Made by a program: the position numbers and the translations under genes. Under the pieces are notes generated by a model. The model was not told the origin of the DNA. It made no database searches and saw only the letters and a program-made list of their open reading frames with translations. A stretch of 64,000 nt of DNA from Octopus vulgaris (lineage: Eukaryota): positions 62,434,001-62,498,000 of the forward strand of contig OX597830.1 in NCBI GenBank assembly GCA_951406725.2. Direction: 5' to 3'. This document shows, piece after piece, positions 15,990-33,843 of the stretch (its first letter is position 1; every line of letters begins with the position of its first letter).

Positions 15990-16867
15990 GTAAGTCATCA
16001 ACTCATTTTATTTTCTTTGTTTTTGGTTCACATTTGAGGGAATATATCCATTCTAATGTTGGCCTACTCCTTTGGACTAGAGTGGTGTGTGTGTGTGTTG
16101 TTTTAAACGTATCAAAAAAAAGTTTCTGTGGCTGTGTGGTAAGAAGTTTGCTTCCCAACCACATGGTTTCAGGTTCAGTCCTGCTGCATGGCATCTTGGG
16201 CAAGTGTCTTTTACTATAGCCTCGGACCAACCAAAGCCATGTGAGTTGATTTGGTAGACGGAAACTGAAAGAAGCCTGTTGTATACATGTGTGTTTGTGT
16301 GTGTCTTTATGTCTGTGTTTACATCCCTGTGACTTAGTAGTTCAGCAAAAGACACCAAAAGAATATATGCCATGCTTTAAAAAAAAAAGTACTACAGTTG
16401 ATTCATTTAGCTAAAAAATTTTCAAAGCAGTGCCCCAGCATGGCCACAGTCTAATGACTGAATCGAGTGTAAGATAACTGGTAAAAGAAAATAGTCACAA
16501 TATTTGAAGAAAGGTTTTCTATAATTACAAATTATTTAATTACATAAAAAATATCTTACAATAACAGAATGACGCAAACCTTTTGTAAAGATTTTTTCAA
16601 GTGTGTGTGTGTGTGAATATATTTATACACACACACACACATAATCGTGTGTCTACACAGGCATAATTGAAACCTGTCCTATATATGACACCGTGGATGG
16701 AGGTTGGACCAGATATTAAACTCTACTATGATGTTTGTAATAAACACACACATATAAAAATATAGCCACACTGAGCCTAGCAGCTGTATAAACATCTGCA
16801 GCATCCCCGTCCCGTGTCTTGTAACGAACAACATAAGTGAAAATAAAGAAACCCTATGATATATATC

Positions 16868-16899
<32 letters not shown>

Positions 16900-17869
16900 A
16901 TCATATATGTATATATACCTACATATGTATATGTGTGTGTATGTTTGTATGTATGTATGTATATATACATGTGTGTGTGTGTGTGTGTGTGTATGTATAC
17001 ATGTACATACACATATATATATATTGTATATATATGTATGTATATGTATATATATGTATGTATATGTATATATATATATTGTATATATATATACATACAT
17101 ATATGTGTATATATATATACATACATATATGTGTATATATATGCACATACATATATATATGTGTATATATATGCATATACATACACGCACACACACACAT
17201 ACGTGTGTGTGAGTGTCATAAGCTGCAACTTGTTGCTACAATGTTATGTAGCTGTGTGTGCATATTGGTGCATGCAATTATTGCAGATTGTCTGTTGCAT
17301 CGCAGTGCACTGCCAGTCGCTGTTTGTGCGTGTTACACCACACTGCACCACTCACAGTTTGCAATGTGTGTTACATGACAATGTGCCACCTGTCAACACA
17401 GTGCGACACCAATCAATGTATCTGTGACGCTACTACGACACCCCATTCTCTCTCTCCTCTCTCTCTCTCCTCTCTCTCTCTCTCCTCTCTCTCTCCTCTC
17501 TCTCTCTCCTCTCTCTCCTCTCTCCCCCCTCTCTCCCTCTCTCTCTCTCCTCTCTCTCTCTCTCACACTGTTTGTGTTACCAGTTACAAATTAGGTGAAA
17601 ATATTCTTTTCTACTCTAGGCACAAGGTCTGAAATTTTGCAGGGAGGGGGCCAATTGATTAGATTGACTCTAGTATGCAACTGGTACTTAGTTTATCGAC
17701 CCCAAAATGATGAAAAGCAAAGTCAACCTCAGTGGAATTTGAACTCAGAATGTGAAGACGGACGAGATGCAGCTAAGCATTCTGCCAACTCCACCGCCTT
17801 CCAATATGAAAGGCAAAACTGACTTCGGCAGAATTTGAACTCAGAATGTAAACAGATGAAATGCTGAAA

Positions 17870-18300
17870 TCATCATCATCATCGTTTAGCGTCCGCTTTC
17901 CATGCTGGCATGGGTTGGACGGTTCAACTGGGGTCTGGGAAGCCAGAAGGCTGCACCAGGCCCAGTCTGATCTGGCAATGTTTCTACGGCTGGATGCCCT
18001 TCCTAACGCCAACCACTCCGTGAGTGTAGTGGGTGCTTTTTACGTGCCACCGGCACGGGTGCCAGACGAGGCTGACAAATGGCCACGATCAGATGGTGCT
18101 TTTTACGTGCCACCGGCACGGAGACCAGACGAGGCTGGCAACGGCTACGATTGGATGGTGCTTTTCACGTGCCACCAGCGTGGAGGCCAGTCAGGGCGGC
18201 GCTGGCTATGGCCACATTCGGATGGTTCTCTTACGTGCCACCGGCACTGGCATCACAGCTAGAAATTCCATTGATGTTGATCAATTACGATTTTGATTTT
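17870..18300 (-). mobile_element. Family C retroposon with internal ~60 bp tandem repeats (gtgctttttacgtgccaccggcacg x4)
   Basis: (CAT)n at the left end; repeated units are visible; CpG-rich. Confidence 0.8.
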
Positions 18301-18318
18301 CACTTGCCTCAACAGGTG

Positions 18319-18400
18319 AAGTATAAACGATAATGACCAATGATCAAAGTATAAACGATAATGACCAATGATCAAAGTATAAACGATAATGACCAATGAT
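18319..18400. repeat. 28-bp minisatellite x~3 (aagtataaacgataatgaccaatgatca)
   Basis: Perfect direct repeats with no spacers. Confidence 0.95.
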
Positions 18401-18483
18401 AATCCAAATAACTTCAGAAAGATTTAAAATAAAATGGGAGAAAAAAAGAAAAGCAAACAAATTTATGTAAGAACCCAACAGAA

Positions 18484-18525
<42 letters not shown>

Positions 18526-19044
18526 ATGCGTGTGTGCTACATGCATATGTTTATCAATGGTTCTATCATCATTATATTTTGTATATTACATTGTTTTGTT
18601 TTTATTAATAGTGGGCAACAAATTATGGATATTAATGTGTGAATTTGTTTTCTAAATATATACAATGTTTGAGGTGTGTCTTTCTCCATAGAGGTGTGTA
18701 TGTTTGGATGGTGGTGGTGGTGGTGAGGGCTGGTGGTTACATACATTTGTGCTTATAGAAATAAATATGCCTTATAGCTTTGTGTATATATATGTGTGCA
18801 TGTTTTTTTCTGGGGGTTGGCGGGACGGGTTTTAGATATGTTGATATTTATAGACGCAGTTATGACTAGCTTTTAGTGTGTCTGTGTGTGTGGGTTTGTT
18901 TTCATTAGTGTGTATTGTGTAGTATGTGTGTCGGCCTACACAAAGGTATATAGAAGTATATAGGCCTATTGATTCCTGGGTATAGTGAGGCATAGATGTA
19001 GAGAGAATTATTGATTTCTATAGCGAGATATATGTATGCGTGTG

Positions 19045-19119
<75 letters not shown>

Positions 19120-19123
<4 letters not shown>

Positions 19124-19300
19124 TTCCTCCGTCTTCCCTTCTCTGGATCTTTCCTTTTCCTATGTTTCTGACAAAGAGCTTCGCTCAAAACGTTAAACCC
19201 TCCTTCTTCCCTTCCTTCCTGAGCGTCCAATAATACTATATTTGTTCCACGTCCTCGTGTTGTGTTTTCTCTTTGTGTTTTCATGTTTGGATTAACTTTA
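19120..19300 (+). mobile_element. Penelope-like pLTR relic in (TA)n with decayed hammerhead motif
   Basis: gttt-ctgacaa-a-gagc-ttc-gctc-aaaa-cgtt-aaac at 19164-19198. Confidence 0.55.
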
Positions 19301-19545
19301 TATATATATATATATACATATATGTATGTATGTATTTGTGTATCTGTGTTTGTCCCTGCCACCATCGCTGGACAACTGATATTGGTGTGTTTACGTCTCC
19401 ATAACTTAGCAGTTTGGCAAAAGAAACCGATTGAATGAGTACTAGGCTTACAAAGCATAAGCGCTGGGGTCGAAAGCAGTGCTCCAGCATGGCCCAGACT
19501 GAAACAAGGAAAAGAATAAAAGAATATATATATGTGTGTATGTGC

Positions 19546-19583
<38 letters not shown>

Positions 19584-19588
19584 ATATA

Positions 19589-19619
<31 letters not shown>

Positions 19620-20159
19620 GCACACACATATATATATATATACATATATATATACACATATATATACACTGTCGGCTTGCCTGCGTGTCTGCATGCCTGT
19701 CTGTCGCTCTGTCTGTTTGTCTGGCATATATATATATATATATATATATGCACATACATGCATACACATATATGTATGCATGTATAAGTGCAGAGAGAAA
19801 GGGAAAAAGAGAAGTAAAACACACACATGCAAGCAAATAAATACACACACACACACACACACACACAAATGAGTCCAGAGTTTATCTGTGTTGTGCGTGT
19901 TTTTCCATATTAAAGGAGTGACATGCTGGTTTATTAAATAGTCATTAGTCATTACTCATTAACCAGCTATATTTCAACCCGAGTGACACAGCAATCCTGA
20001 TTAAATATATTGATTACATACAATTACTGTACAACACCAGAAGCAGCATGGGCTGCAGTAGCAGCAGCAGCAATATCTGCTGGTCCCTACAGGTCCTGTG
20101 ATATCCAGCCCCTAACCCCACTGCTTTACTTATTTGTCAATCCATTTAGTATATGTTGC

Positions 20160-20580
20160 CTTAATCCCTTCTCTCCCTCCCTCTCTCACTGTTTCTTTGT
20201 ATCTCTCTCTCTCTCTTTCCCTGTGTTTCTCCTTTTCTAACTTGCTCCCTCTCTGCCTTTCTCCCTCTCCCTCGCTCACGTGCCCCCTCTCTGCCTTTCT
20301 ACCTCTCCCTCTCTCTGCTTCTCTCACTCTTCCTTGCCTTCTCTTTGCCTCTCCCATTCTCTCACCGTCTTTCACACTCTCTCTCATTCTATCTCTCTTT
20401 TCTCTCTCTCCCCTCTCTTTCCCTTCCCCCCTCTCTCTTTCTCTGACCCTTTCTCTCTTTCTCTCCCCCCTCTCTCTCTCTGTCCTTTCCTCTATGTCCT
20501 CTCTGTCTTGCTTTCTCACCCCCTCTCTCTTCAGTCTCCCCCACTCTCCCTTCTCTCTTTCTCTCCCCTTCTATCTCTCA

Positions 20581-20616
<36 letters not shown>

Positions 20617-20965
20617 TTCTCTACCCTTCTCTCTATCCCTTTCTCTGTCCTCTCCCCTATGTCCTCTCTGTCTTGCTTGCTCACCTCCTCTCTCTTCTGT
20701 CTCCCCCCACTCCGTTTCTCTCACCCTTCTCTCTCTCTCTTTCTTTCTTTCCCTCTCTCTTTCTTTCTTTCTCTCTCTCTTTCTTTCTTTCTTCCCCCCG
20801 TCCTCTCTCTCTCACCCTTCTCTCTCTCTCTTTCTTTCTTTCCCTCTCTCTTTCTTTCTTTCTCTCTCTCTTCCCCCCTCCTCTCTCTCTCTCTCTCCCT
20901 CTCTCTCTCTCTTTTTCTTTCCCTCTCTCTCTCTCTTTCTTTCCCTCTCTCTCTCTCTCTCTCTG
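20160..20965. repeat. ~800 bp CT-rich polypyrimidine tract
   Basis: Read directly; similar tracts at 17447-17565, 24815-25260, 52600-53000. Confidence 0.9.
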
Positions 20966-21287
20966 TCCGACCAACTCTGACACATGAAACAGAATGATGG
21001 ACAGATATAACACAGATTATATATTAATAATATAGCAGAAAGACTTGTTCTTGTTCTTGTTATCGGTGGTGGTGGCGTAGGACAAGAAGAAGGTGGAGGA
21101 GGAGAAGGAAGAGGAACAAGAACAAAGCCACTCTTATCAATCTACTCGTTAGTTCTGATTATCTTATTGAAATAACCAACATATTTTACTTTTGCTTTCT
21201 TTTGTTTTCATTTTTTGTTTTTATCTATATATATTGGTAGACAATTCCTTCATTACTAAAAACTAACCGTTTTCTTGTGAAGCGTGT

Positions 21288-21325
<38 letters not shown>

Positions 21326-21370
21326 GCATGCACTTAATATGTACATGTGTGTTTGCATATATATGTGTGT

Positions 21371-21409
<39 letters not shown>

Positions 21410-21668
21410 GTCCAACCCATGCTAGCATGGAAAGCGGACGTTAAATGATGATGATGATATATATATATATATATATATACATATCCACACATACACCTAG
21501 AATTGCCTGACTACATGTGTGTTTGTTTGTGTGTGTATATATATATATATATTTGTGTGTAATATATATGTGTGTATGTATGTATGTATGTATGTATATA
21601 GAGAGAGAGATGTATGTGTAAGTATATATATACATGTTTCTTTATAGATATATGTACATATAGATATG

Positions 21669-21714
<46 letters not shown>

Positions 21715-22363
21715 TGTGTATATGTACACACACACACACACACACATCTATATATATGTATAATACGCACACAGATAGACTTCAGTCTTTCAACCCAAAC
21801 ACTATGGTTAAAAGCGCCGCCGCCGCCAGTGGCAACTGACATTACTTGTACAAAGATTGCAATCAACTGAAGACTAAAAGACTACTTCTTCACCATTATT
21901 ACAAAAGAGAAGGAAGAGAAGATGGCACACGTCGTGCTTTGTAAGCAATGGCTTAGCAAGTGTGTTTACATAATGTATTCTTGATGTATAACCAAAGCAA
22001 GTTGTTAAACAATGATTACTGTGTTTAACAAATTAGCTGCTGTCTTCTTCATAGACACATAGGTTCATTGTATGATTATAAAGACCTATATACCTCGTTA
22101 GTGGATCACCCTGTTTTGTTCCTGTTGTTCGGTGTTGACCGAGAATGTTGCTTCTCTGTCTATGTGTGTGTCTGTGTAGGAAGATGATTTGCTCAATGTC
22201 TCTCTCTCTCTCTCTCTTTATGCATGTGTGTGTGTGTGTCTGTGTGTACATAACTCATATACACACATGCATGCATACATATACACATATACATATATAT
22301 ATATATGTATATATATTTACACACACATATACAGAGAAATTTATATCTATATCTATTTATCTA

Positions 22364-22419
<56 letters not shown>

Positions 22420-23189
22420 TAAAGACACACATATGCATATGTATGCATATATTTGTGTGTGTGTGTGGAGTGTGTGTGTGTGGAGGGGCAGGCAAACAGA
22501 TGGACAGTCTTCTGATTGTCTTTCAATATTCATAAGAATTCAAAGAATTCTACAGAACTGGACATAAACGGAATGTTTGTGTGTTTGTATCTTCTTTGAA
22601 AGCCTTCTTTCATAACGTACGCTGACATCTTGTATCTCTAGCTGTATGTTTACATATTTAGTGCTCAGTTGATATATTTAGCTCTTTTGAGGACGTTGAG
22701 CTCGCAGAACTGTTTGCATGCCAGGTAACAATACTTACCAGTATTTCATCCATCGCTATGTTCTGAGTTCAAATTCTGCCATGGTAAACTTTGCCTTTCA
22801 TCCTTTCAGGGTCTATAGAATAAGTAATCAGCTAAAAAGTGGGGTTGATGCCATCGACTTATCCCCTTCCTGAACTTGTTGATCTTTTCCCAAAATTTGA
22901 AACTGATGAAGTGCCTTCCCAAGTTGTACAGACTCATAAGGGCCGGTTTCCCGGTTTAATAATCCCCACCTGGATGGGATGCCAGTCCATCACAGATTTA
23001 CTCCTTTTTGCTAGCTGAGTGGGTTAAAGCAATGTGAAATGAAGTGTTTTGCTCAAGAACATACCGCATTGCCCGGTCCAGGAATCGAAACCACAATCTT
23101 ATGATCATGAGTCCAACACCCTAACCACTAAGCCATGTTTCTCCATATGTTAGTATGCTCAGTGCAAAAATTAAAATAAAAGTGAATTA

Positions 23190-23351
23190 AGCGAAGGAGT
23201 GGCTGTGTGGTAAGTAGCTTGCTTACCAACCGCATGGTTATGGGTTCAGTCCCACTGCATGGCATCTTGGGCAAGTGTCTTCTACTATAGCCTCGGGCCA
23301 ACCAAAGCATTGTGAGTGGATTTGGTAGACCAAAACTGAAAGAAGCCCATC

Positions 23352-23400
<49 letters not shown>

Positions 23401-23643
23401 TGTGTGTGTGTGTGTGTGTTTGTTTATATGTTTGTGTGTCTATGTTTGTCCCCCCAACAACACTTGACAACCGATGGTGGTGTGTTTACGTCCCTGTAAC
23501 TTAGCGGTTCAGCAAAAGAGACCGATAGAATAAGTACTAGGCTTACAAAGAATAAGTCCTGGGGGTCGATTTGCTCGACTAAAGGCAGTGCTCTAGCATG
23601 GCCACAGTCAAATCACTGAAACATGTAAAAGAGTAAAAGAGTA
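23190..23643 (+). mobile_element. Full-length SINE-A
   Basis: Complete head, internal (TG)n and tail; further copies at 16127-16475, 31090-31720, 45800-46170. Confidence 0.88.
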
Positions 23644-25832
23644 GTTGCCTCCTTTTATGGGTCTAGCCACTGAGATCTCATAAGAATCTCTCAAAATCTC
23701 ACAAAGCCAGTGTTTAGCTCAACATTCAGCAACATTTAAGTATGGCAGCCATTTGCACAAGATTTGGTGCCTAATATTCATGGCTACAACAAGTGAGGCA
23801 CAACGAAAATATCTTGGATTGATTGATGATAACATTCCTGCAATATTTCTTTCTATATTTGGGCAGGACATATGTGATTGATGAGATTTTAGTTCAATAT
23901 TTAATCCACTTGACTGATTTTTCCCTCCATTCTTACACACACACACACATCCTCAATATGACAATATTGCGTGAGTGTATATACATGTACATATTCATAC
24001 TCACACATACGCATTCACAATATTTCAATTGTGTATGTGTATGTACACATACGCACACATTCATATACACATCCATAACATTGCAATATTTGTGTGTATG
24101 TGTGTGTGTGTAGATGCATAGGCATACATTTGCATATCCTTCCACATGAATTTGCATACATGCATACACTCACGTTCACACAGAGACAAATACACACAGA
24201 CATATACACATACACATGTACATATGTGGCCATACTACATCCATATTCACATACAAAAATAGACATATACATATAAATACATGCATATACACACATACAT
24301 TTTCATCTGCACACACACACACACCTTCTTACGATATTGTTCATCTCCACATGTATTTAATGTTGGTGCATTGTGGTTGAATGGCTAAGATGGTTGTTTC
24401 ACAATCATGAGGCCATGGGTTCAATCCTCAGGCCTGGCTTCTTTAGTATGTTCCTTTTTCCATAGCCTCAGACCCAAGTAAGCCTTCTGACAGACACCGA
24501 GTAGACGGAAATGGTAAGGAAGCCCATAAGATGGATTAAAACATCTCAGCTTCATCACATGCTGTGTCACATGACTGAAAGAGCAGAACGTTTGGTTGAT
24601 CGAACTAAATGATCATCTTAGAAACTGACTGAGATCCATTTCCATTGCAAACGATATCTTTACATTGTCATAAAGCTACACTTTATACAAAAGAAATGTG
24701 AGACGTATTACTGTTGATGTATGAAGGACCCCAAGATGCCACTGGTATTATTTTTATCAACCCCTATAATTAAGTCAGAACTTGTGTATTGAGTGGGGGT
24801 GGCACGGAGGTTTAACTCTCTCTCTCTCTCTCTCTCCTTTCTCCCTTTCTATCTATCTTCCTCTGCCCCACTCTCCCACTCCCTGTCTTTCATTGTTCCT
24901 CTCACTCTCTTCCTCTCCACTCCCTCTCCTTTTTCGTTCTCTCTCTTTCTCTATGTCTCTATCTCCACCCCCTCCTTTTTTCTTTTTCTCTCCCTCCACC
25001 CCATTATCATCTTCTCATCTTCCTCTTTTCTCCCCTTCCCATCTCTCTCTCTCTCTCCCCACTACCTCACCCTTCAAATAATCTACCCTCTCTCCCTTCC
25101 TCTTTCATTGCTCATCCTATCACCTTCTCTCCGTCCCTGCCTCCCCCTCTTCCTTCACTTTTTCCTTCCCCACTTCTTCCTCCTCATCCTGCCTCTCCAT
25201 ATTTCATTATCCCCTCTTTACCCTTCCCCCCACCCCAACACACTCTCCTCCTTCCTCTCCGTAATTCAATGACTAAACTGTTGTGATTTCAGGATAAAAA
25301 ACATCTCCAATATTTTCCAAATACTCCCTCCCTCCCTCCTCCCATTCCATTCCATCAGTTTCCGGATTTTTTATCGATATTTTTTCATTTTTTTTCCTTC
25401 TTTCTTTTCATTCATTTCTTTTATTTATTCTTTCCCTCTTTTCTTTCTTTTCTCCTTTCATCCTTATCCATCATCATTTCACATCTGTTTTCCATGCTGG
25501 CATGGGTTAGATGGCTTGATACAAACTGGGAAAACTAGAAGCCATACCAGGTTCCATAATCTGATTTGGCAAGGTGTCTATGGCTGGATGCCCTTCCTAA
25601 TGCCAACCACTCCACAGTGTACTAGGTTCATTTTATGTGGTACTATCACAAGTGCTTTTTAAGTGACACCAGCACCATATTATTATTATTATTATTATTA
25701 CTAATACTTAGCTGCATTTCGTCCATCTTTACATTCTGTGTTCAAATTCCAGCAAGGTCAACTTTGCCTGTCATCCTTTTGGGGTCAGCTAATTAAGTAC
25801 CAGTGAAAGTTTCTGGTGTTGTGCCTCTAGTC

Positions 25833-26005
25833 ATCATCATCATCATCATCCAATGTTTTAAATCAGGGTTTTGTCCCATAAATGGTGGGGTAGCCAGATC
25901 TACCTCAGTGCCATAGCAACCACCCTCACACCATCTTGCCTGGTTTTGGACATCCTCCCTTCTCAAGCCAACCCTCCCAATCTCCTCTTCCACCTGTCCC
26001 CTCCA
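25833..26005 (-). mobile_element. RTE-clade LINE extreme 3' end with (GAT)n tail
   Basis: Minus strand reads WRGQVEEEIGRVGLRREDVQNQARWCEG, then a short UTR and gatgatgat. Confidence 0.65.
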
Positions 26006-28263
26006 TATATAATAGAAAGGATTATTGTTGTTGTTGTTATTATTGCTTGTTCCATGCTCACATGGGGCAGAAGGAATTTGTTGAGGCAGGTTTTCCACAG
26101 CTGGATGCCCTTCCTGTCACAAACCCTCACCTGTTTCCAAATAAGGTAATATTTCCCCAAAGCCAGGTAGGTTTCCATGACAGACTGGAAATGACTGACA
26201 CTGCTTATATGACAGTGATGCTCGTTTACTTTTATCGCACAATGTCAAAGCAAGGAGACAGTAACACACACATATGATGGGCTTCTTTTAGTTTCCATCC
26301 ACCAAATCCACTCACAAAGCTTTTGTCGGCCCAGGGTTTTAGTAAAAAAAACACTTGCCCAAGATGCCATGCTGTGGATTTGAACTTAAAACCATGTGGT
26401 TGGGAAGCAAACTTCTTACCACACAGCCATACCTGCCCCTTTATATCCTCTTTAAATCCTTTACTGAACTTTTGACCTCTTGTCACCTTAAGCAAAAAAG
26501 CAGGGTCTTTCTAACTAACCTCGGCTTAATTTCCTAAGACCTTGATCCTGTTTCAAATTGAGTTAATCCCTCTGACAGCCTGGATGAATGAGTTACATAT
26601 TTGACTCAACATTTTTTTAATCTCCCAGCTAAATTAGGGATTAAAACCTCCCAGCTAGATTAAGGATTTTAATTATTATTATATCCAAGGACTGATGTAA
26701 AGAGAAAAACAACAATTAGGGTTTTTTTCTTCTGATGTGTTGGATGAGAGGAACAGTTTACTTATGACTTCACTACAACCATCACCACCACCACCACAAC
26801 AACAACAACAACCACCACCACCAATACAACCACCACCAATACAACCACAACCAATACAACCAACACCACCACCACCATAGCCAATACCAACTCAACCACC
26901 ACTGCCATTCCACGAAGACAAACATCCCATTCAGATTATTTCTGTTAATTAATCAAAAAACAGTAATTAAGAGTTACCAAATTGATGAGGTCTCCTGCCT
27001 TTACTACTGGTAACTTAATACTATTGCTGCCCCTCTCCCACTCCTACTACTACTACCACCACCATCATTACTACTAGTACTACCACTACTACTACTACTA
27101 ATCCTGTCTTAGGTACATTATGCCTGGTGAAAATACAGGATGGTCATAGCTGGAATGTCATTGATCATAGATGTGCTCACTTGCATATGGCCTGGAGCAA
27201 AACTACAGCGGCAACTTGTGTGTGTGTGTGTCCCCGTGTCCATGTGTGTGTGTACATATACAGCTATTACTAAGGAGATAATCATTTTGTTATAAGGTAG
27301 GATAAGTAGTTTGAAATTAAGATTAAGGAATTATAGAGGAAAAAGATGCATAGAAATCATGTATTTAACTTTTTTTGTGTGTGAAGTTGTTAAAATTCCT
27401 CATCGTTGGTAATCATGCGTAGCACTATTTCATTCTTTTTTGAAATTGTCAGCATGATATAACCTGTGACTTGTTAATTAAACATTTTATAAAGAGAGGC
27501 ATTTCATTAAAGTTGGAAATGCTTACAATCTGTAGAAAAATCATGAACTAAAAGGGGTTTTCACAAAACAGACTATTCACCAAAAACCAATAACTTGATG
27601 GTTCAAAGCTAAAACTCGAAGACCAAGATATATATTTACCGACTTCACAGATTATTGACAAAACCATCATGTTACTCCAGCATGCTTCACTACAACACTT
27701 TATTAAAATTTTACAACTATTGATAGATGATAGATGGAGAAGAATGAGGTGTTATTGATCTGTTGGAAATATTGATTAATGATCAAAAATTGAATTTTAT
27801 GTCTGGTATAGTATTTTGTAATGGACCGTGTACCATTCCATCACTTAACTCTTTTGATTACATATATATAACTATTTAACTGGTTACAGACAACAGTCAC
27901 TGATTGGTTAAAATATGTGTCAAGGATAAACCTTGACATAAATTTTAACCAATCAGTGAATGCCAAGAGGGAAAAATCTAAGGGAAATCATCTAATCAAT
28001 TTATATTTCCACTAATCACAATCATTGAATTTCAACCAATCAAAGAACTTTGATAACACATATGTGTATGTAGTTGAGGCTACTGACGACCAATGAGAAT
28101 GGCTGTCTTTCACACATCTGTATGCTTTCCTCAGACCATTTGCCTTTGTAAAGACAAGTCTGGATTTCTTATTTCTCATTAGAATTTTGTTGTGGATCTG
28201 GCCAACCCTTGTTTGATAGTCCAGTGAGAAATATCAATTTTCTATCTCTCACACACACGTACA

Positions 28264-28549
28264 CAGTGGTGGAGTGGCCAGGTTGCCAGCTTGTCTGATG
28301 GCAAGTGAGCTCCTGCACCATTAAGATCCATATATGGGGACCTGTGTTAGTATCTAAGGGGCCCATCCCCTCAAGTTTGAGAATTTTTTATTCACTCCAC
28401 GAAGAATGCATTAATTATTTCAACCTGGTTGTGTTTGTAGACAGCTGAAAAGAATACTTTTAACAAAGAAAAAAAATGACAACATTGTAGTTGTGGGTGG
28501 GCCCCTTTAGTCTCCTGGCAACCAATTTTTTAGACCCAGTCCGCCACTG
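28264..28549. mobile_element. hAT-type MITE, 286 bp
   Basis: TIRs cagtggtggagtgg / ccagtccgccactg; 8-bp target duplication cacgtaca / catgtaca (one CpG-type change). Confidence 0.8.
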
Positions 28550-29178
28550 CATGTACACACATGGTCAGTAGATAGAAACTTCGAAGTCACTGCCACCACT
28601 CTTGTTGTGAAAGTATAATACCAAAAAAGTATTGAGTAATTCTTCATTTTAATGTTAAATCGTTCTTATCCTAAATCTACATAAAAACAAACATTGATGC
28701 ATTCAAACAGTCTTCATAATAATGGTCAGAATAAACATAATTTGTAACATAACTCCATATACTTTACACTTTGGAAAATCTAATGTGAAACCAGTCAAGT
28801 GTAGTCCTATATTTTAAAATATAATTAAATTCTAATTAATTATAATACATTCTCTGTACATTTTCAACTTCATTTCTTCTGTTGTACTTGTTTCTATTAA
28901 TAGCAATATATCATTGCTATTATGTTAAACTGTTGTATGTCCAAATTTGGCCAAATGCGGTTTTTCTCAATATTATTTCTGCTGGCAATAGCCGGTTCTT
29001 TTGGTCAAACTATCGTATCTCCAGCTGCTTCAGAATCCAAGATATAAAAACTTGTCAAAATGTTGTACAATGGTTTTGCTATGGAATGGTGAAACTATTT
29101 TTTGTTTTCTGAAAAAGTAACATTTTGGACTTAACACTTTTGCATAATAGCAACGATACATACATACACACACACACA

Positions 29179-29773
29179 CACAACTAAAAAAGCTACTAGT
29201 AGTTTCATAGTTTCATGCTTATATGATACATTAACTAGGCATATTTCTAAAAGATACCATGTATAGAATAAAAAGTTTTCAATGGTACAACAATGCACTA
29301 TAATACAGGCAATGGGCTGTGTATACCTGTTGTAATTTAGTCATTCATAGTCTGATATGATATTTCGGAATAAAATTCCTTCTTCAGATATTCGTAGATG
29401 AAGTCACTGCTATAATCGGTTTACTAATGGCTTTTGGATAATTTAAAACCATTATCGTCCATTGGAAAGCCGATTATAGCAGTGACTCCATCTAAGAATA
29501 TCTGAAGAAGGAATTTTATTCCGAAATATCATATCAGACTATAGATGACTAAATTACAACAGGTATATATCCCATTGTCTGTATTATAATGTATTGTTGC
29601 ACCATTCAAAACATTTTATTCTTTACAAACAATACACAGTGCTTCAAGCAAACTACAATACTCTCCTATACTTTGTATCGCCAAGCCATTATGATGTATT
29701 TTATAAATATGCCTAGTCAATGTATCAAAGTATCATATAAGCATGAAACTATTAGTAGCTCTTTCAGTTGTGT
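29179..29773. mobile_element. Palindromic doublet of Penelope-like pseudo-LTRs
   Basis: Arms of ~260 and ~320 bp are reverse complements around a centre near 29446. Each arm reads outward as an ORF-end relic followed by a hammerhead core. Confidence 0.75.
29489..29547 (+). ncRNA. Candidate minimal type I hammerhead ribozyme (mirror copy on the minus strand, core 29354-29387)
   Basis: CUGAAGA-A-GGAAU(UUU)AUUCC-GAAA-UA(UCA)UA-UC; predicted cleavage after C29535 (AUC); stem I imperfect. Confidence 0.55.
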
Positions 29774-31250
29774 ATTAAAGTAATCTCTCACAGTGGGTGG
29801 AGTACTTTTTTTGTTGATTCTACATGTATTGGATCTACTTATATATATATATATATATATATATATAAGATTAATCAGCCGAAATTACTACGATGATCCG
29901 GTTCTTGACTGAAGACTGAGGGCTTTGAATGTCCTGTCTGTGTTTGTTGTATCGTCTTCTAAGTGTTATGCGTTCTTGTCACAGTTTGTATTTTTTTTAC
30001 ATATCATAATATATATACATATATTGCAACTTGTTGCAAAAAAACCCTTATTATTATAATTATATATATATATATAGATAGATAGATAGATGATATCTTT
30101 CACTATTGAATTACTTAATAGAGGTTATTTCTCTCAATTATATACATATATTATATATTGTGAAATTTGATTTAGAATTGCTAAATTGAATTTTTCCCTG
30201 TAAGTTTAGAATTATATTCCCTACTATTATTATATATATATATGTGTGTGTGTGTGTGTAAGCTTCTTTCAGTTTTCATCTTCCAACTCTGCTCACAAAG
30301 CTTTTGTTGGCCTGGGGTTCTAATAGAAGACACTTGTCCAAGATTCCATGCAGTGGGACTGAACCTGGATCCATCTGGTTTGAAAGCAAACTTCTTAACC
30401 ACACAGCAACACTTGCAACTATCATCTAAAGAATATATATATATAACTTGTTTACCATTTTTTTTTTTTTTGGCATTAAGTGCTAGCTAGCTCCACTTGA
30501 CAACATTTTATACTAAAATTTCACCAAGTCACACAGCAGTCTTCCACAATTCCAACTAACAATTGGTGATTCTTAAATTTCACAAACGATGCCCAAACTC
30601 TGCTACTGCTGCTGTTACCATTTCAAATCTTTTGGCATTATCTGTGACATTTTCTCACATGCAGAATTATATTTTACCATAAACATCCTGTATTCTTCAT
30701 TATTTCTTCTATTGCAAACTGTTTCTTTTTTTAGAAATGGTAAATCATAACATACCGGATGTGTTCTTCTGGCACTGCCCTGTTTTTGAGACGGGTGTCA
30801 CCACAACCGGTTTCATTGTATGCAGAGCATAGTAGTAGAGGCTGTTGTTGTTTAATCCCAGGTCAGTTTTGAACCTGGAACCACAAACTTCTCAATCACA
30901 CAGCCATCCCTGTGCCAACAATGTGGAATGAAAATTGGTTAGAAATGTCAAAAGAAGGAGACTTCATGCTTTAATATTTCAACTGTGGCCATGTCTTGTC
31001 GAAATATTCCATGTGTTTTTGTTCAGACCAGACAGATGTGGCCTCTCACACCTACCCTACAATGTCATTCTAAAACAATGCGAATGAATAGGTGCAGACA
31101 TGACTGTATGTTAAGAGGTCTGCTTCCCAACCATATAGTTTTGGGTTCAGTCCCATGGCATGGCACCTTGAACAAGTGACTTCTATAGCCTCAGGCTGCC
31201 CAAAACCTTATGAGTGGATCTAACAGATGGAAACTGAAAGAAGCCTGTCG

Positions 31251-31293
<43 letters not shown>

Positions 31294-31294
31294 A

Positions 31295-31470
31295 AAGAGA
31301 GAGAGAGAGGGAATTCACAAAAAGACAAAGACAGGTGGTGTAGACAACAAACAGATGTATTAGTATAACACTCGGGAAGTGAAAAAGTCTTTAACGTTTT
31401 GAGCCTATGCTCTTCCACAGAAAGGAACACAGAAAGAAAATAAAGAATGTGTAGTGGCTAGCGATCTACA
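31295..31470 (-). mobile_element. Penelope-like pLTR relic nested in the (TA)n of a SINE-A
   Basis: Minus strand cttt-ctgtgga-a-gagc-atag-gctc-aaaa-cgtt-aaag (31389-31424), the same architecture as 19164-19198. Confidence 0.5.
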
Positions 31471-33214
31471 TATATAAATACACACACACACTCACACACA
31501 TATGTTGTTTGTGTGTTTGTCTCCCACTACTACCTCACAACTAGTGTTGGTGGGTTTACATCCCTGTAACTTAGCAGTTCAGCAAAAGAGACTAATAGAA
31601 TAAGTACCAGGCTTTACAATGAAATAATAGGTAGCGGGATCGATTTGCTCTACTGAAGTTCTTCAAGGCAGTGCCCCAGCATGGCTGCAGTCTAATGACT
31701 GAAACAAGTAAAAGATGAAAAATTAATAAGCCTTACATTTGACAGGGGGACCCTGGTATCTTGAATGCTTCGGGGCTAAAAATAAAACATTAAAATTAAT
31801 ATCTTCTCATCAACAAAGAAACGGGAAGTAGTTTCATTGTTGTGTTTATTTCTAACACGGAAACAAAACGTTTTTATCCGAGGTATTATTACTACTCTCC
31901 TTTGTTTCTCCCCCAAATAGGGGGAACCACACCCTTGGAGGAAACAGTTTTTCACCTGCATCATACATATTATTAACAGGAGTTAATTTGATACTTGTTA
32001 AAGGGTTTCTTAATCATCCTTTTCAATAGTGTGGGTGTGTTTAGGGTTTCAGTTTTATCTTTTTCTTTTTTGAGGGTTTTTCAGTTTTATCTTTTTTTTT
32101 AGGGTTTTCCTTTCATATTGCGCAAAACTAGTGGGTGGGTGGTTGGGTATTGGGGGTTTGAGGAGTGGAGCTAAATATAGTAACTAAGAAGGGAGTCTAA
32201 ATAAATAAAGGATTGGCAGAGATGGTGGAGGGAGGGAATTAGCAGGGATGATGGTGGTGATGACAGTGGGAGTGGTGATGGTGGTGATGTTGGTGGTGCT
32301 TGTGATGGTAGTGGTGGTGGTGGAGGCAGTAGTGGTTGTGGTGGTGGTGGTGATGGTGCTACTGGGAATATTGATGGTGGTGGTGGCAGTGATGAAGACA
32401 ATGGTGACGTTAGTGATGGAGATGGAGATGTTAGTGTTGATGCTGGTGGTGGTGGTGGTGGATGTAGAGATGGTGGTGATGAAGCCGATAGTTGTGAGGT
32501 GGGGTTTTTGGTAATGGTGAAGATGAGGGTGGTGGAGGCGTTACTGCTGCTGGTGATGGAGATGAAGATACTAGCTGTGAGGGTGATGGTGAAGATGAAG
32601 GTGGTGGTGGTGTCTAGATGACAGGGTGGTAGTACATTATTGAGGAATATCTAAAGTGAAATTCCTTATTTTTCTTTTAGCATTTTTAATTCAATTTTTA
32701 AAATTTTATTTTTGTCTACTTCAAAATTTCAATTTTTTTAAAAATAAAAATATATTTAAAATTTTTATCAAAAAATAAAAGAAAAGCTTTAGATTCCTTA
32801 AAAGTAGACAATAAATAATTACTTTTACTTACTTCAGTCATTGGACTGTAGCCATGCTGGAGCACTGCTTTGAAGGATTTTGGTCAAATAAATTGACCCC
32901 GGCATCTTGTTTTCTTTTTTTTAAGTATGGTAGTTATTTCATCATTTATTTTTTGGTGGTGGGGGGTGCTGAACTGCTAAGTTACAGGAATGTAAACAAA
33001 CCATCATCAATCGTCAAGCAGTGGAGAGACAACTACAAAGACACCCACACAAACATACATATGTACACATTCACATACAATGGGTTTCTTTCAGTTTCTG
33101 TCTATTAAATCCACCCTCAAGGCTTTGGTTGGCCCAAGATACCACACTGGGACTGAACCTAAAACCATGTGGTTGGGAAGCAAATTTCTTACCACACAGC
33201 CATACCGGCATCCA

Positions 33215-33582
33215 TTACCTCTGTCTTAGCAAAGGCGGAGGTGTTGTTTTCAGTCATGTTTGTTTGTTTGTCTGTGGACAAGATATCTCAAGAACCATTG
33301 GATGGATTCCAATGAAACTTCCAGGGATGTTTGGCCTTGTGACTGGCATGAACTGATTCGATTTTGGGATCGAACCGGTACCGAATTATTTTTTGGGATT
33401 ATTTTTCCTGTTTCTTTTTTACTTAAGTTTTGAGAGTGGTCGGGTTCAATTTTAATATTGTCATTTGTGAGAGCATTTGAGTTTATTTCAGATATTTTCA
33501 TTCTAAAAATCATGTCCGGCAAATCGTTGCGAGGAAGTTGGTGTTGCCTTGGCGAAGGTTTGCGCTTTCTGAGTGCTCGTTT
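33215..33582 (+). mobile_element. Helentron-associated (HINE/DINE-1-like) non-autonomous element, copy 1
   Basis: 5' tacctc...ggcggaggt inverted motif, (gttt)n, 3' ccttggcgaaggt subterminal repeat plus gcgct..gagtgc hairpin before TT. Confidence 0.65.
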
Positions 33583-33765
33583 AATATATTTTTCTCTTAC
33601 TTGTTTCAGTCATTAGACTTTGGCCATGTTGGAGCACCACTGTCATTTTTTTTTTCTTTTTTTAGTCAAATAAAACAACCCCAGTTATTAACTTGTTTCT
33701 ATATTTGTCACGGTTTTCTTTTCCGGTTTATTTATCATTTTCCCAATTTATTTTTCTCTTTTCAG

Positions 33766-33843
33766 CGGACATATGTGTTTGCCTTCCTCCTTGGTTCCAG
33801 GCTTTTTACCAATCCCCAGGATCTCTTCTCCCAGATCTGTCAG
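33766..33843 (+). CDS. RASGEF1B: RASGEF1-family exon B: RTYVFAFLLGSRLFTNPQDLFSQICQ
   Basis: Acceptor ctcttttcag, donor gtcagt, 78 nt, phase 0/0. Continues DYYPD|RTY.F.FLL.SRLF as in RASGEF1 proteins. Confidence 0.93.

Follow-up and report, generated by a model that had tools for sequence, protein, structure and literature searches.

The imperfect palindrome at 29178-29773 of the window (the whole 64-kb stretch of Octopus vulgaris DNA analysed here) consists of two nested stubs from two Penelope-like element (PLE) families, and is very probably a neutral relic; its hammerhead motif is predicted to stay masked and uncleaved. Its neutrality is suggested by its decay. The inner ~400 bp (29265-29668) belong to a Penelope-like family, F1, and the outer arms to a second family, F2. 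The nesting of F1 in F2 is the sole locus-specific feature; the architecture itself is already published.

The arms are reverse complements, as the initial annotation stated, with 229 of 250 aligned positions identical. The inner arms agree at 153 of 168 positions (0.91) and the outer arms at 69 of 77 (0.90), and the computed fold of 29179-29773 is -310 kcal/mol. The ~600 bp had been taken for two pLTRs; the hammerhead family covers only 29265-29435 and 29459-29668, and the outer arms are a different repeat. A genome search with the right arm gave 2438 first-look F1 candidates, and the best 40, which were scored, cover only the part corresponding to 29459-29670. The remainder of the right arm matches F2 (632 candidates, best 40 scored). 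No second locus spanning either F1/F2 junction was found among the best 40 of 737 and the best 40 of 1243 candidates, and within these best-scored candidates the composite unit looks single-copy. The features are as follows.

15990-33765, plus strand: GT-AG intron of 17.8 kb in the host gene, a member of the RasGEF family
29179-29264, minus strand: F2 short inverted arm, tail-less, abutting a (CA)n run; probably the older Penelope-like family, with Hydra-like motifs
29254-29264: left copy of the 11-bp target-site duplication of F1, 9/11 identical to 29668-29678; boundary uncertain by ~3 nt
29265-29435, minus strand: F1 inverted 5'-truncated pLTR, tail-less; reads from other copies stop matching at 29265
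29355-29391, minus strand: minimal type I hammerhead motif lying antisense to the host gene; cleavage predicted to follow the C at 29359
29436-29458: 23-nt filler joining the two 5' ends, unaligned to F1 upstream sequence
29459-29668, plus strand: F1 5'-truncated pLTR with a ~45-nt AC-rich tail (about 29623-29668); reads from other copies stop matching at 29669
29498-29534, plus strand: minimal type I hammerhead motif, host sense, predicted cut after C29530
29639-29668, plus strand: remnant of the F1 ORF start (10 codons), reading VLQANYNTLL where full-length copies have MLQANYNTLL
29668-29678: right copy of the F1 target-site duplication
29679-29690, minus strand: resumption of the F2 inverted arm beyond F1, as far as the old F2 inversion point; weak alone (13/16 nt)
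29691-29838, plus strand: F2 long arm with a ~60-nt tail, then (TA)n; only the 3' half of the F2 hammerhead-like motif, GAAA at 29745-29748

The two Penelope-like families

The inner arms are inverted pLTRs of an endonuclease-bearing (EN+) PLE, as proposed initially, and other genomic copies carry RT and GIY-YIG sequences in cis. Twenty endonuclease loci were hand-picked from 150 matches by score or long frames; the F1 unit lies downstream on the same strand at 15 of them, is present only in inverted orientation at 2 and is missing at 3, a linkage that does not uphold a foldback MITE. Two of 20 RT loci (L095 and L098) are full-length PLEs carrying this pLTR, with direct pLTRs around a broken ORF of ~2.5 kb. 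RT and the C-terminal GIY-YIG form one ORF in F1 copies, broken in all of them by stops or frameshifts, and Pfam detects RVT_1 (E 5.5e-13) and, marginally, GIY-YIG (22.7 bits against a cut-off of 22.6) in F1-linked ORFs. A reading of in-frame TGA as selenocysteine, as in Naiad-like elements, was set aside because of the C-terminal position of the endonuclease and because TAA/TAG stops, too, are common. Among named proteins, the closest relative of F1 is an Octopus bimaculoides gene model (80%).

The ORF of full-length copies starts with MLQANYNTLL, within the final 30 nt of the unit, and the long relatives P0004 and P0005 likewise open with MLQ. In longer copies the upstream frame ends ...VVYRIQCNKCNKFYVGSTTRPLHVRIKEH...GNQYII*, with the ORF stop ~290 nt 5' of the hammerhead core. 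Because the stop precedes the core and the start lies in the unit tail, the peptides first read as an ORF-end relic (DNGFKLSKS..KPIIAV..NI*) are non-coding UTR and filler, and the ORF relic that is present is the start. DNGFKLS is read mostly from the 23-nt non-family filler at the palindrome centre. Peptides read by eye from pLTRs can thus pass wrongly for ORF ends. Upstream of the core, 10 of 30 F1 copies extend 133-1147 nt. An A-rich run 23-52 nt upstream is the start of 20 of 30 copies (L001-L030) in a sample biased by the query start, and this start point may be an RNA 5' end or an RT stop.

The F1 insertion has the anatomy of an inverted pair. An adjacent opposite-strand partial copy occurs at 10 of 29 other fetched F1 loci. 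Among selected inverted pairs with both arms reaching the 3' region, 12 of 12 have one short and one tailed end, the short arm ending about 40-45 nt before the tailed one; at this locus the left F1 arm is the short one. Inverted-pLTR architecture and its one-ended tail asymmetry are described in parts of two published accounts (PMC3846280, PMC8557442), and a further report, likewise drawn on in part, explains the asymmetry by two RT start points (PMC11167929). Reads from other copies lose their match at 29265 and 29669, the edges of F1. The F1 arms diverge by 5.4% and 5.7% from the family majority and have two variants in common, as expected from one source RNA.

The F2 inverted arm is interrupted at the left flank and taken up again at the right flank with an 11-nt repeat, 9/11 identical. 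This duplication was placed by eye with 2 mismatches; an automatic scan scored only 6/8 here, and 10 of the 63,989 11-mers in the window match as well. Elsewhere, target duplications of inverted F1 pairs are clear at 3 loci (10/10, 13/13 and 11/12), unreadable at 7 microsatellite sites and ambiguous at 1. F1 thus shows the short target duplications and AT-rich targets that mark EN+ PLEs.

Several known elements resemble F1, as judged from the portions of the cited reports used here. Pen2a_Av of Adineta vaga also has a ~200-bp pLTR that includes the first ORF codons, a head-to-head inverted 5' pLTR shorter than the tailed one and a target duplication of 8-10 bp (11 bp here), and is itself a secondary insertion into another Penelope, Pen3 (PMC3846280). 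It differs in that no ORF body lies between the arms here, the tail is ~45 nt rather than 31 and the target here is a short palindromic stub (PMC3846280). In Poseidon_Ac, two 3' ends likewise define an AC-rich tail inside the ORF start and targets are AT-rich, whereas its ATG lies inside the hammerhead rather than ~110 nt downstream of it as in F1, and it does not share the Cys linker that precedes the F1 endonuclease (Frangieh et al. 2024, PMC11167929). F1 has the C-terminal EN, Cys linker, (TA)n targets and CxxC with two downstream His of Neptune/Nematis, but its linker, CX4CX7C, differs from the CX2-5CxxC stated for that clade (Craig et al. 2021, PMC8557442). In 25 distinct F1 variants, the position at which the Neptune/Nematis linker needs a Cys is R in 16 and C in 4; P0002 and P0004 have a spacing similar to F1. 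The placement of F1 near Neptune/Nematis, like that of F2 near the Hydra clade, is a tentative one based on motifs. Searches of an open-access library gave nothing on nested pLTR palindromes in cephalopods, which is a weak reason for calling them unpublished.

Other F1-related sequences were noted in the genome. About ten F1 endonuclease fragments lie within 1 Mb (G000:C29, about 17.0-18.0 Mb) and start near the same residue; the cluster is probably a segmental duplication. In the database protein P0001, an F1-type endonuclease end is fused to unrelated sequence that has a precomputed PF05672 hit; this protein is probably a gene-model artefact, possibly an exonisation. Beside an F1 insertion, L083:1973-4141 holds an uninterrupted 723-aa membrane-protein frame, presumably TMEM63-like, which is possibly a retrocopy. 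Distantly related, stop-free RT frames of 750-1000 aa, sharing ~28% identity with the F1 query, occur at G000:C20:37493755, C19:65206975 and elsewhere, and L164:6052-7074 carries an intact 341-aa PLE-like endonuclease frame, so younger retroelement families are present in the genome.

F2 has a fixed 3' end before microsatellites and variable 5' ends, and builds its own short-arm/long-arm inverted pairs at other loci. A decayed frame upstream, read by eye, contains CxCX5C, VIY...YIG, CxxC..E and LN.RSE..CRH. The CxCX5C linker, the CxxC preceding the conserved E and the CxH following the conserved N, like the (TA)n targets, agree with the Hydra-clade description in the part of PMC8557442 consulted. 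The Atlas ties the F2 frame to a cluster with GIY-YIG in 11% of members (score 0.93); for the F2 protein, Pfam gave nothing relevant and a homolog search came back blank. The F2 unit lies downstream at 8 of 25 linker loci, 2 of which had been picked earlier through F2. YRDD and DKT motifs were seen only in two relatives (L189 and L191, 56-57% identity), which are without the F2 unit, and the link of F2 to RT is indirect. F2 copies are 81-89% alike, against 90-96% for F1 (40 scored), which fits F2 as the older family.

The F2 pLTR also carries an atypical hammerhead-like motif, for example at L139:1536-1660 (plus strand); the window has only its 3' half, 29740-29762. Stem I is AGAGC/GCUCU, the core is CUGAAAGA with one extra A, and there is a U-U opposition at 10.1/11.1. 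A ~50-nt branched insert extends helix II, stem III is near-palindromic and the triplet is GUA; the standard minimal-core scan missed it. Pairing holds in 89.9% of cells with 19 of 30 loci aligned, and covariation is below the shuffled mean. The motif could be an unusual PLE ribozyme or chance.

The hammerhead motif in the host intron

The core CUGAAGA-A-GGAAUUUUAUUCC-GAAA-UAUCAUAUC is the same in both arms, as first reported (C3 at +29502 and -29387); a minimal-core scan gave no other match in the window. In the plus-strand motif, stem I (29498-29501/29531-29534) is followed by the core at 29502-29508, an extra A at 29509, stem II (29510-29514/29518-29522), GAAA at 29523-29526 and a palindromic AUAU stem III at 29526-29529. 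The core boxes (CUGANGA and GAAA), the extra nucleotide 9.1 before stem II, G10.1-C11.1, the palindromic 15.2-16.2 and a helix I of 4-5 bp agree with the minimal hammerhead consensus of metazoan PLEs given in the consulted part of Cervera and de la Pena 2014 (PMC4209133). That part also reports opposite-strand hammerhead pairs 100-700 bp apart, as here; helix II is 5 bp in F1, against 7-8 bp in Schistosoma.

The cut had been expected after 29535. Register was assessed on 71 distinct aligned F1 copies, and pairs were counted in 39 rows from 64 references and the window, truncated or deleted copies, among others, being left out. Placing the cut after C29530 leaves the four inner stem I pairs intact in 37/39, 38/39, 36/39 and 36/38 rows; at the fifth position 10 rows have G-C, 3 have A-U and 26 are mismatched, among them the window, whose subfamily has A-C. 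With a cut after 29535, 2 of 5 stem I pairs are broken, failing in 37/39 and 38/39 rows, and the register costs a computed +6.3 kcal/mol; it was rejected on these two grounds. The best fit would be a minimal dimer-type hammerhead with a predicted cut after 29530, and the longer palindromic stem III inserts of older copies are permitted by a dimer-type motif. Covariation in the 29530 register is not above shuffles (257 and 274 of 500), with one G-C/A-U swap in 3 of 39 rows, and is slightly better on the same measure in the 29535 register (35 of 500). No Rfam hammerhead model matches at E up to 10; the scan gave only weak matches, hairpin-type miRNA-like and other, all below the gathering score, with models that may not cover minimal forms. 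Near 20 more distant RT hits, the minimal-core scan found no F1-type hammerhead; one of these hits, L130, has two matches of another motif.

Selection for the fold finds little encouragement in the copies. Seven left-out copies, one of them the full-length L095, are without 2 nt of the stem I 3' strand, reducing stem I to 2 pairs, which would speak against steady selection. The initial annotation held that the core is identical while the flanks vary; the identity stands, and the 47-nt run is no longer than chance allows (P = 0.09, with 15 mismatches among 168 sites). Divergence from the majority letter across 30 copies is 2.7% in the core and 3.6% in the rest. Conservation of the core by selection was accordingly set aside as unsupported, since the identical run is compatible with chance and core and flank conservation are not clearly different.

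The palindrome is intronic, as initially described. The upstream exon runs to 15989 and is followed by GT, the downstream exon begins at 33766 behind an AG, and the flanking exons read ...GSLEALVQHLLPTRDYYPD and RTYVFAFLLGSRLF... The exon at 33766 matches RasGEF_N at E 0.038, below the Pfam cut-off, and a RasGEF exon above the cut-off lies 100 bp past the window end. The host gene resembles RASGEF1. Other structured repeats surround the palindrome: a third high-copy, MITE-like repeat (28906-29161), with ~29-nt terminal inverted repeats (83%), directly adjoins it, a 32-bp hairpin with a 5-nt loop and 91% complementarity lies at 27894-27962, and an inverted SINE-like pair (30262-30399 and 31110-31244) in the same intron is another possible duplex.

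The antisense arm is the first to emerge in the host transcript, and in the computed fold every nucleotide of the sense core pairs with this left arm at P of at least 0.997, in agreement with the proposal that the hairpin masks the motif. The accompanying proposal, a switch between a cleaving fold and the hairpin, is not supported, given this pairing and the absence from the palindrome of the same-sense partner that would be needed; a dimer hammerhead is out of reach because the two copies are opposite-sense. The motif in pre-mRNA is predicted to be masked and not cutting. The region is expected to fold into an imperfect duplex of ~250 bp, probably a passive ADAR substrate like other inverted repeats, and use of the hairpin by ADAR or Dicer is plausible. 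Strong hyper-editing in octopus, and hyper-editing of a lizard Penelope and of palindromic repeats, are reported in the consulted part of PMC5625713. RNA reads at least 99% alike to the stretch are only 7 of 505 and 3 of 436, and 97% of the reads continue into sequence unlike it; the reads are uninformative on editing or cleavage at this locus because almost all come from other copies.

Order of insertion and competing readings

The nested stubs suggest the following order. F2 would first have landed in a microsatellite, leaving a short inverted arm and a longer tailed arm. The F1 endonuclease would later have cut this stub with an 11-nt stagger, 12-22 nt from the inversion point. The F1 RT then likely copied the 3' pLTR region of F1 RNA from two starts ~45 nt apart, which would give an inverted arm lacking the tail and an arm that has it; each stops just 5' of the hammerhead, with 23 nt of filler between them. 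Decay of ~5.5% per arm would have followed.

A one-event origin, in which a single F1 insertion or a later fold-back copied ~85 bp of flank and the outer arms are a by-product of F1, draws on the near-equal likeness of outer and inner arms and on two variants that the outer arms have in common against the F2 majority. Such variants are also expected from one source RNA, F2 makes the same kind of palindrome at loci without F1, the left outer arm ends near the habitual short end of F2, and the F2 inverted arm resumes past F1 with a duplicated target, all of which make a single event improbable. A fold-back MITE, moving as a 600-bp unit, would explain the long inverted repeats and high copy number; F1 and F2 both lie downstream of retroelement ORFs, and the junction searches described above gave no second locus, so this reading has next to no probability. 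Nor is the locus a non-LTR retrozyme, which is defined by direct repeats in tandem that each contain a type I hammerhead (bioRxiv 10.64898/2026.07.22.740005, consulted in part); the copies here are inverted.

Another reading is a working switch, in which the intronic hammerhead would cleave RasGEF pre-mRNA either as a monomer or during transcription, ahead of hairpin formation. In its favour, both arms have an intact core, and a protein-assisted PLE hammerhead is known from the portion of PMC11167929 used here. Against this, the antisense arm is transcribed first, so that the duplex can form while the sense core emerges, stem III can form only in trans, and the fifth stem I pair is A-C. An isolated 56-mer favours a fold that buries CUGA (-5.9 against -2.8 kcal/mol), the core shows no clear excess of conservation, and in the consulted part of PMC4209133 single minimal motifs did not cleave and dimers cleaved weakly. 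A switch is therefore very improbable, and a masked relic of two nested insertions is the preferred reading.

Within that reading, Penelope endonucleases might be guided by DNA structure, F1 having cut the stem-loop junction of a cruciform formed by the F2 palindrome. The 11-bp duplication covers the last 7 nt of the F2 cruciform stem and 4 nt of the loop. Insertion within ~15 nt of the apex of a 260-bp element has a chance of ~1 in 8, and this is one case; structural guidance is an unlikely explanation. If it were true, each inverted insertion would be a landing pad for the next, palindromes would lengthen and the (TA)n bias would also be explained. Backing from a genome-wide count would make such targeting by structure a matter of real interest.

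The locus matters little alone, as one of many relics with known architecture. Nested Penelope stubs such as these can make long intronic duplexes and are a likely source of ADAR substrates.
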